DNA of 64,000 nt from Eledone cirrhosa (GCA_964016885.1 OZ024740.1:275838001-275902000); one strand, 5' to 3'. Counted from the first letter of the stretch, positions 763 to 60,797 are shown. Translations and numbers: made by a program. Notes: generated from the letters alone by a model not told the origin.

Positions 763-1068
763 ATTTATAAAACCATAATTATTTTATTATATATATTTCA
801 AGGGCGACCAAGGTAAATTATGATGCGCTTTCATCAGATAAAATGCAGATTTATTTATAAAACAAATCTGTATTTTATCTGATGAAAGCACATCATAATT
901 TACCTTGGTTGCCCTTGAAATATATATAATAAAATATTATGGTTTTACAAATGTAGTTTCCATTTATTAATATATTGTATATTTACTCCACTTAACTGTT
1001 GAGTGCTTTATATCAGTTATAAACATTTTTAAGCTTGTTTAATCCCAACAAATTAAATATAACCTCTG
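763..1068 (+). mobile_element. Fold-back hammerhead cassette, family 1 (Penelope-like pLTR or retrozyme-like)
   Basis: Inverted arms ~763-853 and ~861-953; a hammerhead in each arm; unique tail with GAGTGCT at 1001-1007; ends in (TA)n. Confidence 0.75.
871..936 (+). ncRNA. Minimal type I hammerhead ribozyme
   Basis: tattttat-CTGATGA(879-885)-aag...ctt-GAAA(917-920)-tatata-TA-ataaaata; 8-bp stem I; mirror copy on the minus strand ~780-845. Confidence 0.85.
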
Positions 1069-1239
1069 CATATATATATATATATCTTTTTACAATATGA
1101 CTATATATATATATATATGTGTGTGTGTGTGTGTGTGTGTTATAGTTGTATGTGTTCAACATATATGGGCTTCTGTTAAAAGTTGATTAATATATTATCC
1201 GATATAGAACTCAGTATAAAATGTGGAAAATCACACACA

Positions 1240-1715
1240 CATATGTTTAGATATATATACCCAAAAAGTACATGCAAACACACCACACACTTATATTTAT
1301 ATATATAAATGTATATATATATATAGAGAGAGAGATACATATACATGCTTATATATATATATATCATGGGATGATATATATATATATATATATAGATGCA
1401 TATATATGCTTATATATAGATATAGATATAGATGCATATATATATATATATATATATATATATATATATATATATATATATATATGTCTGTGTGTGTATA
1501 TATATATGTAAATATATATGTATATATATATGTATATATACATATATCCATATATCTATATATATACACATATACATACATACATACATACATATATATA
1601 TCTATCTATATATATATATATATATATATATATATATATATATATATATATATATATATATATATATATATATATATATATATTTATATATACGTATACA
1701 CATATAGAGAGAGGG
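1240..1715. repeat. (TA)n-rich compound microsatellite
   Basis: Direct reading; source of the YI-repeat ORFs. Confidence 0.95.
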
Positions 1716-2459
1716 AATGAAAAAGTGAGGTAGTTGGTGTGGGGTGGGGGGGAGAAAATAGATTATTACAGACTGTATTAGATTACTGGACATGTGTTTA
1801 CTGATGTATCTAAAGCACATGTTTGAATATAGTGTAGATTTATGGTTCAATCATTTTACCAGACTTCCAGAACAAGAAATTTGCCAATATTTATTAACTT
1901 GAATTTTCTGTACTTGTAAACAATAATAAAAATATTAGTAAAAACTTAATGAATAGTATGAAAATAAATGATGTTCATGAAATTACTTGATAGCAAAATA
2001 AATTTTTTTTCCAAAACTTTCTGAAGCTAAATTTTTGTAATGGCGAGCTATCACACCTCTCTTCTGTCCGCTGGGGCTGTGGGGTGGTAAGCATGTAGTC
2101 CCCCATTTGATGACAATAGTGAGAGATGGAGTGAGTGAGAGAGATGGAGGCAATGAAAGCGGGAGTTTGGTTCTTTTCTGTTCGATCCTGGTGTATATAA
2201 TGTGCTAAAATAAATGCACTGTCATTCAATCATGCTGATATTTCACAACCAGCAGATATATATGACTGGTATTTAAATATTTTATCTCTCAACCCGCTTC
2301 TAGAGACTGTGTAGTTGTTTTTTTGTTGTTTTTTTTAAATAGAATATTGTTCTACATTTTGGCATATAAAAGCATTATTTATAAAGCTGTATATTTAAAT
2401 CTAGAGAGGTTTCATGAACAAACTGATTTCAGTTTGATCTAAGGGAGTCACTTTAAATA

Positions 2460-2556
2460 ATCGTTTCCACGCAATTACCCAGTGCATTACTGGTACTTTA
2501 TTTTATCGACCCCATAAGGATGAAAGGCAAAGTTAACCTTTGCGGGATTTGAACGG
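2460..2556 (-). mobile_element. tRNA-derived SINE family A, partial
   Basis: ctggtactttattttatcgaccccataaggatgaaaggcaaagttaac core shared with the other copies. Confidence 0.8.
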
Positions 2557-2839
2557 AATCACTTTAAATAATGAATATGTATATGGATACTTTTTTTCAT
2601 AGTGGCATAGTTTGAAAGACTTTTTATATGGCTGGATAAACCTCCTTACACCAACCAGTACCTTATTTTAAAATATGGTGTATATAGCACAAATCTTCTT
2701 TACTAACTGCATTACTATGGGATGTAATTTTACACGGGACATAAACAAATGACTCTAGATGCATGAAAACGTTATCAGTAAGATGATGCATGCAGTAAAC
2801 TGATATGAACACACATATATATATAATCATCATTATCAA

Positions 2840-3110
2840 CATCATCATCACTGTTTAACGTCCATTTTCCATGTTAGCATGGGTTAGATGGGTTGTCCTA
2901 TTTTAGGCAAATCAAAGTCAGATGACCGTTTCTTGCTCATACAGAACTGCTTTTGGCTTGGTTTCTATGGCTGCATGCCCTTCCTATTGCCAATCACATT
3001 TACAGTGTGTACTGGGAGCTTTTTGTTGTGACACCTACATGACCACCTTCGAGTGTGGGCTGGGCGTTTTTTGTTGTGTTGCCATCATGATCACTTTACA
3101 GTGTGAGCTG
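2840..3110 (-). mobile_element. RTE-type 3' UTR / SINE tail fragment
   Basis: (CAT)n tail followed by gtttaacgtccattttccatgttagcatggg, matching the RTE 3' ends in this window. Confidence 0.65.
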
Positions 3111-3444
3111 TGGGCAGGATGTGTGGGGTGGAAATATGGGCATGTGTGAGGGGCAGAGTGTTAGGACATGGGTGGTGTGTGGAAGGAGAGATGAAGATGA
3201 AAGTAGTGCATACCAGATATATGCTTCAGCCTGTACTCATGGGAGGTGTATGGGAGAAAGTGGGGGTGAATACAGTTCTAGTCATATAGAAGCCATTTCT
3301 ATATAAAATAAAGATACCTATCCTCTACCAATGTATTGAGTACCCTTTTGAACTGTGGTTACCTCTCAGCGCATATCAAGAACATACCCATAATATATAT
3401 ATATATATATATATATATGTGTGTGTGTGGGGGGGGGGGGGGCA

Positions 3445-3660
3445 TATAGACAATATGCCCTCAGCCCCTTTCACTGCAAAGTGGTCGTAGAGGTGTCATG
3501 ACAAATAAGCACCCAGCCCACACTGTAAAGTGGTCGTGTAGGCGCCACAGAGAAAAAGCACCCACCACTCACTGTAAATAAGGTTGGTGTTAGGAAGGGA
3601 ATCCAGCTGTAGAAATCAAGCCAAAATCAGTTCCATTATCAGCAAGACAAAGTCATCCAA
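3445..3660 (+). mobile_element. SINE family B / RTE-tail fragment
   Basis: ggttggtgttaggaagggaatccagctgtagaaatcaagcc matches 22482-22523. Confidence 0.65.
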
Positions 3661-4344
3661 CCTAACATCGCCCACAACAGGATAGGTATCTTTATTTTAT
3701 TTAGAAATGGCTTCTATAGGACTTGAAATGTTTCATTCATATGAAATCAAAAGGCAACATATAAATTTAATCTGATTTTCTTGATGATTTTATACGAATG
3801 AATCAGTTCATTGGCATCTGTTTTAAACAATTCTGAATGGATGGTGATACCTATATTAATATTTTCTTGATAAATTACTTTATCATAGTCAAGCCCAAAC
3901 CAAAAATTCTTTCAGCCAGCCATGTGACTTGGTATAATGGCCTTACTTTCACATAGAAAGACATGAAAGAGCTCCAAACAAAATAGTAAAATAAAGTCAG
4001 GAGGAGGAATGAAATAAAGCTTATTGTTAGAAATAAAGCATAAGTAAGTTTTAAAAGACTATATTTGTTATATGATAGTCCTAACAAAAACGAAAACTTT
4101 TAATTGATTCTTGCCAATTCCGACCATCACTGAATCTCGTTGGAATCATGTGATTATAATCTTAGCTAGTAGGCACAAAATGGAAAACAAAACATACTAC
4201 TCCTATGCCATGTACATCCATCTCAACATCCATCCCTGCATCTCTCCCTCTCGGTGTTACATTTATCACCTTCACCACCACCACCTTTTCAGCTATTACT
4301 TAAACAATTGCTGGTGTCAATACTCCTTCCTATATTACCACGCT

Positions 4345-59103: not shown

Positions 59104-59570
59104 CATCATCATCATTTTATGTCCGCTTTTCCCTGCTTGCAAGGGTGGGGTGGCGGGTCTTCTTCAGCACAACATCTCCCCATTTGTCACGGTCCTTCGT
59201 CATCTCCGCTGTGAGATTCAGAGATCTGAGGTCTGCTCTCACCACCTCTCCCCATGTTTTTCATGGTCTTCCTCTACTGTGTCTTCCTTCCACTGGGATT
59301 TCTTGGCACTTCTTTATTCAGCGGTCATCTTCCATGCGCATTACATGGCCATACCAATGCAGTCTTCTCTCCCGAACACTACAACCTATCCCTCTTATAC
59401 ACAGTTTCTCTCTCAACTCGTCTATGCTTGGTCATTCACACAGATTGGCATTGCACATCCAACGGAGCATGCTTGCTTTATTTCTCTCCATCCGTCGCAT
59501 ATCCTCCGTAGTTGTTGCCCATGTCTCACTACCAAGCAGCATTGCACATCTCACACAGGCATCATATAAC
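59104..59570 (-). mobile_element. RTE LINE 3' fragment
   Basis: Minus-strand remnants of HWYGHVMRM and GRPXKTW; (CAT)n tail. Confidence 0.8.
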
Positions 59571-59571
59571 T

Positions 59572-59783
59572 AGGGAGTGTAACGTCCTGTTACTATAGGT
59601 TCACCCAAGTGAGAACTCGATGCGTAGTTTCCTGTCTATAACGTGGTGTAGAACTAAACAGAGTGTAAATATATATTCCAGAGTAGGCCAGATCGATACA
59701 GTTCGAACCTTGAGCTGATTAATAGCGAAACACACGTTACTACTCAATAAACATAATCAAGGCATAACAATTCGTCCTTTTAC
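59572..59783. mobile_element. Family 2 cassette, rearranged
   Basis: 59572-59668 is the reverse complement of tail 32220-32318; 59675-59783 is the hammerhead 3' half in the opposite orientation. Confidence 0.7.
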
Positions 59784-59800
59784 CAGTGTGTATATATATA

Positions 59801-60097
59801 AGGCACATGGATTAGTGGTTAAAGCATTGGCCTTGCAATCGAAAGGTTGTGAGTTCAATTCTCGGACTGGGTGATGTGTTGTTTCCTTGAGCAAGACACT
59901 TTATTCACATTTCTCCAGTTTACTCAGCTGTAGAAATCAAGCAAGAATCAGTTCCCGTATGAGCAAGACTTGGTCAGCCGACATGGTGAGCAAGACATGG
60001 TGAGCATGACATGGTCAGCGAGCCCGGCATGGTCAGCCGACCGGACACTGCCCACATAGAAGAACAGACGTTAAACGATGATGATGATGATGATGAT
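59801..60097 (+). mobile_element. SINE family B
   Basis: Head matches 22292-22427; short internal repeats; (GAT)n tail. Confidence 0.8.
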
Positions 60098-60147
60098 ATA
60101 TATGTACATATATTTAGAAAGTGAACAACACAATATGTAACTACTCC

Positions 60148-60239
60148 ATTACCAAAGGTTTCAGGACCCTAGACAATATATGTCTGTCTGATGAACGATC
60201 TAGACGTATATTGTCTATGTTCCTCAAACCTTTGGTAAT
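60148..60239. mobile_element. Short fold-back with hammerhead remnant
   Basis: Arms 60148-60185 and 60202-60239; CTGATGA at 60188-94; GAAA-cctttgg-TA intact on the minus arm. Confidence 0.65.
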
Positions 60240-60410
60240 TAAATAGCTCTGTACATATATCACTCTATACATAGATCACTATTTTTTCCTTTGCTTTTTC
60301 TTTGGAAATATCTAACATATATATATATATATATATATATATATATATATATATATATATATATATATATATATATATATATATATATATATATATATAT
60401 ATATATATAT

Positions 60411-60797
60411 ATCAATAATAATAACTGGAAACTATCTTTATAAAACCATATTTATTTTATTATATATATTTCAAGGGTACCAAAATTTTGGTACACTCTC
60501 ATCAGATAAAATATAAAAGTCGTTTTAAGTTCTGTTTGAATAGTTTGACTATTCAAACAGAACTTAAAATGATAAGTTCTTGTTATGAATATGTCACTAT
60601 CTGTAAAACAACTTTTATATTTTATCTGATGAGAGCATACCAAAATGTTGGTACCCTTGAAATATATATAATAAAATAAATATGGTTTTATAAAGGTAGT
60701 TTGCATTTATTAATATTATTGATATTATACTCCAAAAGATTTCTGTAGAGTGCTTCAAGAGAGAGATCATACTTTCTCTCTCTCACTATCTCTTTCT
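60411..60797 (+). mobile_element. Fold-back hammerhead cassette, family 1, with nested hairpin
   Basis: Outer arms ~60411-60526 and ~60604-60722; inner hairpin 60520-60572; GAGTGCT at 60748-54. Confidence 0.8.
60618..60678 (+). ncRNA. Minimal type I hammerhead ribozyme
   Basis: tattttat-CTGATGA-gagcataccaa aatg ttggtaccctt-GAAA-tatata-TA-ataaaata; intact mirror copy on minus strand 60453-60513. Confidence 0.85.

Follow-up and report, generated by a model that had tools for sequence, protein, structure and literature searches.

A doubled bulged stem behind both ends of candidate Hydra-type Penelope-like elements in Eledone cirrhosa: a putative docking signal for reverse transcription

What distinguishes the 3′ ends of the short repeats that lie among the (TA)n tracts of the Eledone cirrhosa genome? 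We considered this question for a stretch of 64,000 nucleotides (nt) (GCA_964016885.1, OZ024740.1:275838001-275902000), called the window throughout, from a genome of 3.0 Gb in 1796 contigs. The window is dense in (TA)n tracts, and between these tracts are insertions of 200-450 nt, each with a long fold-back on its 5′ side followed by a 3′ part that does not pair. A preliminary description of the window had listed 12 copies of a GAGTRCT-like box close to the 3′ ends of such cassettes, and had proposed that the box is either a cis signal for the mobilizing reverse transcriptase (RT) and endonuclease or a tertiary partner of a hammerhead ribozyme. The results reported here indicate that the box forms the 3′ strand of a stem with a bulge, RCTC-P2-loop-P2′-NN-GAGY-RCY, that this stem is carried twice by elements resembling Penelope-like elements (PLEs) of the Hydra type, and that each insertion end is followed, about 7 nt downstream, by one of the two stem copies.

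All 12 of the listed 7-mers were recovered, each at its position and on its strand. Eight are preceded by TT or CT, as had been described, and the remaining four have TA or TC instead. The proposed distance of 40-60 nt to the terminal microsatellite is roughly right for 11 of the 12 boxes; from box start to the next microsatellite it is 44-73 nt, so the original range was too narrow, and the box at 59612-18 has no microsatellite within 150 nt. Two further members had been overlooked (60246-60280 and 56853-56919). Exact GAGTGCT matches at 29647 and 22464 were set aside, both being located within another repeat. As a plain count the signal is weak: GAGTRCT occurs 15 times in the window against 9.39 ± 2.84 in 100 shuffles, four of which reach 15.

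Enrichment at a set position before (TA)n junctions, whose absence had been named as the outcome that would speak against the box, is evident in two independent genome samples. The first comprises 60 stretches of 10 kb, ten of them neighbors of the window, for a total of 600 kb outside the window with 617 (TA)n junctions. Here 27 GAGTRCT boxes occur at 41-80 nt before a junction (24,680 positions) versus 8 at 101-300 nt (111,365 positions; p 5e-14), and the top 7-mer found de novo upstream of the junctions is GAGTGCT. The second sample, with 40 new stretches, 400 kb and 495 junctions, has 21 boxes at 41-80 nt versus 17 at 101-300 nt (p 3e-7). The reverse complement of the box is not enriched at these junctions in either sample (5 versus 21 and 6 versus 26). 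These p-values are too strong because copies of one family are not independent, and tests at the level of families were therefore added.

Upstream of the box is its complement, ACTC, which is followed by a variable helix, P2. The bulge on the 3′ side is mostly 2 nt, and loops range from 3 to about 100 nt. When boxes were picked by sequence and position only, with no use of pairing, ACTC was present within 70 nt upstream in 44 of 53, and 32 of these 53 had the full stem; among control boxes located further upstream, one of 12 had the ACTC partner and none had the full stem. All eight clusters with at least two boxes carry the stem by majority, whereas the six single-box clusters do not. The GAGCCCT variant pairs with GCTC, which is a compensated change on both strands of the outer helix, P1. 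In 14 fold-back families where the outer pair was left free, it is A-T in eight, G-C in four, and A.C and G.T in one each (Fisher p 0.023). A small model built from 19 rows, whose training set held relatives of the window families, gave nine window hits that include eight of the 12 listed sites and the decayed member at 60246-60280. The stem of this last member begins 6 nt after an inverted repeat ends, and this repeat contains a CTGATGA core. Rfam yielded no match on the pseudo-long terminal repeat (pseudo-LTR) of a young element introduced below, and the 150 window matches listed, of 187, include none on the 12 boxes.

We name families by the position of their box in the window and genomic loci by L numbers. 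Seven of the 12 listed boxes belong to families that appear to represent the pseudo-LTR and tail at the 3′ end of Hydra-type PLEs inserted in (TA)n. Long copies join these cassettes to PLE frames with no (TA)n tract between them: the 17034 family via L029, L173 and L199; the 1001, 60748 and 55659 families via L163, L166, L167, L085 and L080; the 15478 family via L246; the 31472 family via L079, L249 and others; and the 15595 family via L037 and L047. The 32271 and 59612 boxes are joined to a PLE frame only across one (TA)n tract, and a search with the 32271 family found no copy running into a frame. Long copies gave no link to a PLE frame for the boxes at 3338, 30781 and 1206, and the 30781 family has no copy elsewhere in 1 Mb. 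An inverted RT piece in L128 was left out of these links. A MITE (miniature inverted-repeat transposable element) or Helitron origin, suggested by the fold-back shape, was dropped because the same ends are found behind PLE frames.

A young family, for which all 150 scored matches are at 99-100% identity, carries an intact frame of 830 amino acids (aa) at L233:3116-5605. Pfam reported neither an RT nor a GIY-YIG domain on this frame; a YRDD motif and a C-terminal YIG motif were read by eye, and the protein has 118 homologues, many with PF26215. In the available portion of Craig 2021 (PMC8557442), the Hydra clade is marked by RWK, a change from DKG to DKT, a CxCX5C linker, CxxC and CxH around conserved E and N, and no CCHH, and a Hydra element is listed for Octopus bimaculoides. 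The frames found here contain RVRWRAY or RLRWR (RWR, with R for the K of RWK) and SDKTG (DKT). The young frame has CNCRNKANC (CxCX5C), CRLC (CxxC) and CNH (CxH), and that of L029 has CNCPDRSTC, CNLC and CKH. On these motifs we assign the host elements to Hydra-type PLEs. The young family (L233-L244; 183.73-183.76 Mb and others) also has a microsatellite-rich 3′ region of 3.7 kb, and its hammerhead stem II spans about 120 nt.

The same portion of Craig 2021 (PMC8557442) describes other traits in common with the elements here, namely a C-terminal GIY-YIG-type frame, pseudo-LTRs that carry a hammerhead, insertion into (TA)n, copies arranged in tandem or inverted, and a tail at one end only. Hydra elements are generally <3 kb there, whereas tandem units here measure 3.5 kb and, in the young family, about 6.7 kb, the excess being untranslated. 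Tails are 30-40 nt there and 60-160 nt here, the latter measured from the start of the stem, and no conserved tail stem is described in that portion of the source.

The preliminary description had spoken of unrelated cassette families. This was wrong in part, as the cassettes are diverged pseudo-LTRs of one PLE clade. Families 1001, 60748, 55659 and 15478 mutually align at 67-85%, and 32271 and 59612 at 79%. The suggestion that the box might recur at the 3′ ends of autonomous PLEs holds for the Hydra type and fails for other PLE families reached by a Pfam GIY-YIG search: families with a canonical GIY-YIG domain have fold-backs and tails with no stem. The window itself includes a hammerhead fold-back of a non-Hydra PLE family (48160-48605, plus strand; L020, L081, L084), which stops at End 1, as defined below, and has a 60-nt tail without the stem. 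Two non-Hydra PLE families have tails that also begin ACTC-GTG-loop-CAC, in one case followed by CT-CGGT, which provides three of four P1 pairs. Tails of this kind are present at L093:8200-8495, in the 5′ region of the minus strand of L043, in L011 and L058, and at 16821-16853 of the window beside the 17034 cassette; they may be a less strict version of the stem described here.

Where do insertions end relative to the stem? The inverted arm of the fold-back insertions terminates immediately ahead of the stem, and the stem opens the unpaired tail in 14 of 25 families. Thirteen first members of the families begin their tail with the stem, compared with 0.54 ± 0.75 (maximum 3) in 200 shuffles. 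We then matched 173 junctions to 16 family references: 77 are at End 1, just before the stem, 75 at End 2, the end of the tail, and four elsewhere, while 17 artefacts, caused by an internal AT run in one family, were excluded from End 2. End 1 is 5-10 nt before RCTC in 65 of its 77 junctions, with a median of 7. Many of the spacers that separate an end from its stem start with TA, which blurs the exact end by a few nucleotides. In the young family, 11 terminal copies comprise six with End 1 and five with End 2, and both inverted pairs have one of each.

Relatives in other organisms reveal a second stem. A profile from 45 of the 118 homologues plus the young protein retrieved 77 loci from metagenome contigs, mostly marine where named; a metagenome scan with the single protein gave no match, nor did viral contigs. 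The metagenome proteins match the query at 41-49%. Of 35 usable stretches downstream of the hammerhead, 15 have the stem (0.55 in shuffles, 2 on the opposite strand), and so do 32 of 56 stretches upstream of the frame (1.63 in shuffles, 5 on the opposite strand), over a background inside frames of 0.007 per 220 nt. With an anchor defined by sequence only, it is found in 56 of the 77 loci, and 74 of 75 distinct cases have a Watson-Crick pair at the first position of P2. The usual form is GCTC...TT GAGC ACT. Two copies occur in 23 of 88 stretches, 22 of them with the copies 55-83 nt apart, which amounts to 13 distinct pairs.

Among six published Hydra elements in File S7 of Craig 2021 (PMC8557442), the stem as read by eye is clear in three and weak in three. 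Within that file it is clear at the 3′ end of Hydra-2_Amil from a coral (GCTC TACAC..GTGTA TT GAGC ACT), at the 3′ end of Hydra-2_Ajap from a sea cucumber, and twice at the 5′ end of Hydra-1_Ajap; the weaker forms are those in Hydra-1_Obim, Hydra-1_Crog and Hydra-1_Amil.

This distribution bears on the explanation that the stem is a neutral stretch inherited by related families, or a product of chance. Some window families do align with each other, as noted. However, the pairs are kept while flanks and loops have become unalignable, and the stem is found in 41 of 61 metagenome clusters, at the protein divergence given above, and twice per element. We find this explanation hardly credible, and the least probable of those considered.

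Because two stems are often seen in the metagenome relatives, a second copy was predicted just past End 2 in E. cirrhosa. It was found there in four genome families, 6-8 nt past End 2, in copies that read through into the frame. The distance is 7-8 nt in the young family, 6 nt in the L093 family and 6 nt in the 17034 family, where a pattern search gave 496 matches (some counted twice) versus none for the control, and where the second stem was complete in 10 of 12 loci read. In the 60748 family the second stem is 8 nt past End 2, with ten matches and the box present in seven of them. Two metagenome pairs (L256/L268 and L271/L258) also fit the End 2 rule by eye. Each insertion end thus lies about 7 nt 5′ of a stem copy, and the 40-60 nt reported from box to microsatellite is the gap between the twin stems. 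What had been read as a linear box measured from the microsatellite is a paired, bulged stem that is present twice.

The triplet after the stem tends to match between both copies of a family (ACT/ACT, TCT/TCT, TTA/TTA), with the 60748 family (GCT/ACT) as the exception. Such matching may reflect co-evolution with a protein. Short tandem units in L332, L333 and L367 (about 257 nt in L332 and L333) join the terminal part of the pseudo-LTR to the two stems and the first codons; these are non-autonomous tandem derivatives that keep the twin stems.

Both copies are located between the hammerhead and the start codon, and their function might lie in that leader. By this account, the stems serve the next tandem copy in translation control, packaging or autoregulation, and the ends adjoin them merely via a bound protein or AT-rich spacers. 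In metagenome loci, the copies are indeed about 100-135 and 40-50 nt before the frame, and in the young family the second stem ends shortly upstream of the start codon. Yet the distances to the ends are tighter (5-10 and 6-8 nt) than those to the start codon, which is about 25 nt away in the young family and 65 nt in the 17034 family. We consider a leader role improbable.

The hammerhead provides another possible partner. A core recognized by pattern is present upstream in nine of ten copies examined, with its GAAA about 47-88 nt before stem copy 1, and mostly 49-66 nt before it in the metagenome loci. This proximity is in keeping with a box that forms a tertiary contact with the ribozyme, as suggested earlier, or that assists its folding. 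However, GAGY is taken up by its own partner strand, two stem copies accompany one ribozyme so that the second has no hammerhead of its own, and a canonical core was seen neither between frame and stem in the 17034 family (L029) nor within 260 nt in L059. We judge a ribozyme partner to be very improbable. Rfam reports a single hammerhead match in the window, HH9 at 35788-35859 (E 3e-6, below threshold), and otherwise microsatellite noise. In L163 the HH9 sequence (35570-36030, minus strand) recurs as a retrozyme-like array of tandem units next to a fold-back of the Hydra type. Non-LTR retrozymes (Li et al. 2026, bioRxiv 10.64898/2026.07.22.740005) are likewise short derivatives of PLE pseudo-LTRs with a hammerhead. 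The window cassettes differ from them in that each is one fold-back insertion with its tail, mostly outside tandem arrays, and in that several have no hammerhead.

The stem is probably a protein-binding signal that places the RT of the element about 7 nt upstream of each copy, giving two alternative 3′ ends. This model, drawn from sequence comparison, agrees with the first of the two original proposals, a cis signal for the mobilizing RT and endonuclease, which is supported by the fixed distance at which the stem lies 3′ of both ends in elements tied to Hydra-type frames. The stem would fold in the sense RNA and would be bound by the RT-endonuclease protein of the element, and the nicked (TA)n target would then prime on the short AT-rich spacer just 5′ of the stem. 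A start at copy 2 (End 2) would copy the tail together with copy 1, and a start at copy 1 (End 1) would leave out both copies. A single box is seen 44-100 nt from the end because copy 1 is copied only from an End 2 start, copy 2 then always being omitted. An inverted insertion might use one stem copy for each arm, which would fit a dimer. A broader version of the model, in which a doubled RNA docking stem is used throughout the clade from cnidarians to molluscs, and each subunit of an RT-endonuclease dimer starts one strand about 7 nt upstream, is tentative, and we regard it as possible but doubtful.

The main rival places the action of the twin stems on the opposite strand or at the DNA level, either as hairpins in first-strand complementary DNA or in an antisense transcript, or as extruded sites for a GIY-YIG endonuclease that cuts or resolves about 7 nt away. 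It holds this rank because the wobble pairs leave the strand unsettled. In the available portions of the sources, the endonuclease of the Drosophila virilis Penelope needs tail DNA for recognition (Frangieh 2024, PMC11167929), the tail is ascribed to resolution by the endonuclease (Craig 2021, PMC8557442), and antisense templates are argued for (Arkhipova 2013), all of which are compatible with such an action. However, on the sense strand each of the two ends has a stem copy 3′ of it and the final copy is omitted, as expected if synthesis on sense RNA began upstream of a mark that is bound. Loop lengths from 3 to about 100 nt fit a single strand that folds and not a double-stranded site, and U.G forms of P1 occur (55659, L029, L059 and L069). 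Action on the other strand or in DNA is thus unlikely in our view.

Several observations weigh against a docking stem in the sense RNA and somewhat dampen our enthusiasm for the model. The counts of G.U versus A.C in P2 are 7 versus 4 in the metagenome set (p 0.55) and 2 versus 1 in the genome boxes, which does not fix the strand. In alignments, 92.7% of pair cells are paired, above all 500 shuffles, but the alignments lean to structure by construction and one of those behind the counts has two of 19 rows misaligned; moreover, covariation counts are not independent events because the families share ancestry. A strict rule finds no stem in 20 of 35 and 24 of 56 metagenome stretches. The stem is absent from 11 of the 25 fold-back families, including those tied to non-Hydra PLE frames, which are also two-ended; because of these families, the stem cannot be a requirement of all PLEs. 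The second copy in the 60748 family has a P2 of just 1-2 pairs. Searches with the 31472 and 32271 families gave no copy that reads through into a second stem, and no RNA run was found to contain the element.

Much of this system is already known, including the Hydra clade, its hammerheads and (TA)n targets, the tail and the two start sites, whereas the conserved doubled stem behind both ends appears to be new. In the PLE and hammerhead literature searched, so far as its available portions extend and with Repbase reports and figure-only supplements outside the search, we found no description of such a stem, in agreement with the earlier remark that the box was not recognized as a described motif. 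The tail is described in the available portions of Craig 2021 (PMC8557442) and Arkhipova 2013. A close parallel is PAc, the Poseidon element of Anolis, whose reverse transcription begins at two internal positions flanking a tail and for which a dimer is predicted (Frangieh 2024, PMC11167929, available portion). Two internal starts or ends, a tail between them and AT-rich targets are thus common to PAc and the elements here, and a presumed protein-binding motif is located downstream of the hammerhead in PAc, like the stem. However, PAc belongs to a different clade and initiates in an AC-rich stem-loop said to be without target homology, and that portion of the source identifies no conserved or repeated motif. 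Unlike PAc, the elements here have a conserved stem behind each site and spacers that often begin with TA.

Other retroelements also use short structured marks, and the stem resembles these in being near the start of reverse transcription and in its presence in both autonomous and short derived copies. In LINEs (long interspersed nuclear elements) and in R2, 3′ stem-loops are recognized in cis by the cognate RT, are located 5′ of the start and become part of each insertion, unlike the stem described here, which is 3′ of the start, doubled, and has its last copy omitted. The epsilon signal of hepadnaviruses and the template-flanking helices of telomerase RNA are likewise bulged stems or helices that position an RT on an internal template. 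This likeness is an analogy only, and we claim no relation of sequence or family.

Table 1. Stem copies, boxes, fold-back insertions and hammerhead cores in the window (positions counted from its first nucleotide).
Position	Strand	Feature	Sequence or remarks
837	-	Inverted copy of the core at 879..920	
879..920	+	Hammerhead core upstream of stem	CTGATGA...GAAA; pattern match, no Rfam hit
985..1007	+	Stem copy 1	ACTC ... TT GAGT GCT; P2 imperfect; family tied to Hydra-type frames
1206..1212	-	GAGTTCT box	No RCTC partner; membership unverified
3322..3344	+	Decayed stem	CCTC TAC..GTA TT GAGT ACC; outer pair lost, relatives have ACTC
15349..15394	+	Hammerhead core upstream of stem	Pattern match
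15457..15484	+	Stem copy 1	ACTC CAGTT..AACTG TT GAGT GCT; family tied to Hydra-type frame (L246)
15595..15642	-	Stem copy 1, compensated outer pair	GCTC ... TC GAGC CCT; family linked to Hydra-type frames (L037, L047)
16884..17085	+	Fold-back insertion flanked by (TA)n tracts	Inverted arm stops at End 1; tail of about 80 nt to End 2
17014..17040	+	Stem copy 1 (17034 family)	ACTC TACT..AGTA TT GAGT ACT
30759..30787	+	Hairpin, probable variant	ACTC ... GAGT ACT; without clear bulge or P2
31314..31515	+	Fold-back insertion	64-nt tail; hammerhead core on inverted arm (31386, -)
31456..31478	+	Stem copy 1, 1-nt bulge	ACTC GTCC..GGAC T GAGT GCT; tied to Hydra-type frames (L079, L249)
32225..32277	+	Stem copy 1	ACTC TGTTTAG..CTAAACA TT GAGT GCT; tail start of fold-back 31991-32319
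55659..55686	-	Stem copy 1 with U.G pair	ACTC CAG..TTG TA GGGT GCT; hammerhead core 55780-55799 (-)
56853..56919	+	Candidate member	ACTC CGTT..AATG CT GAGT GCT; 80 nt before (TA)n; not a model hit, similar family known in genome sample
59612..59664	-	Decayed relative of 32271 stem	No terminal microsatellite
60246..60280	+	Decayed member	GCTC TGTA..TACA TA GATC ACT; one P1 mismatch
60505	-	Inverted copy of the core at 60626..60662	
60626..60662	+	Hammerhead core	Pattern match
60729..60754	+	Stem copy 1 (60748 family)	ACTC ... TA GAGT GCT

The window also includes sequences of other kinds. Positions 4345-14339 are occupied by a 10-kb array of ACCAAC, ACCAGC and ACCATC hexamer variants. An open frame of 1007 aa with a cysteine-rich C-terminus is present at 44411-47434 on the plus strand, and we take it to be the RT of a non-LTR retrotransposon. 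Positions 22771-23487 on the plus strand presumably hold a fragment of a mariner-like transposase.

How PLEs choose their template, and how the tail and inverted copies arise, are treated as open questions in the available portions of Craig 2021 (PMC8557442) and Frangieh 2024 (PMC11167929); the former places PLE RTs as sister to telomerase. A stem at a fixed distance behind each end makes template choice directly testable, and the young intact family could supply both protein and RNA. With the stem as a marker, the ends of Hydra-type elements can also be recognized, and the many short fold-back repeats of such genomes can be classified. If the docking model is correct, the stem would be the first defined template-selection signal of an RT that is sister to telomerase, and it would explain the PLE tail and inverted insertions. 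It would also represent a portable tag that turns any RNA into a template for insertion into (TA)n.

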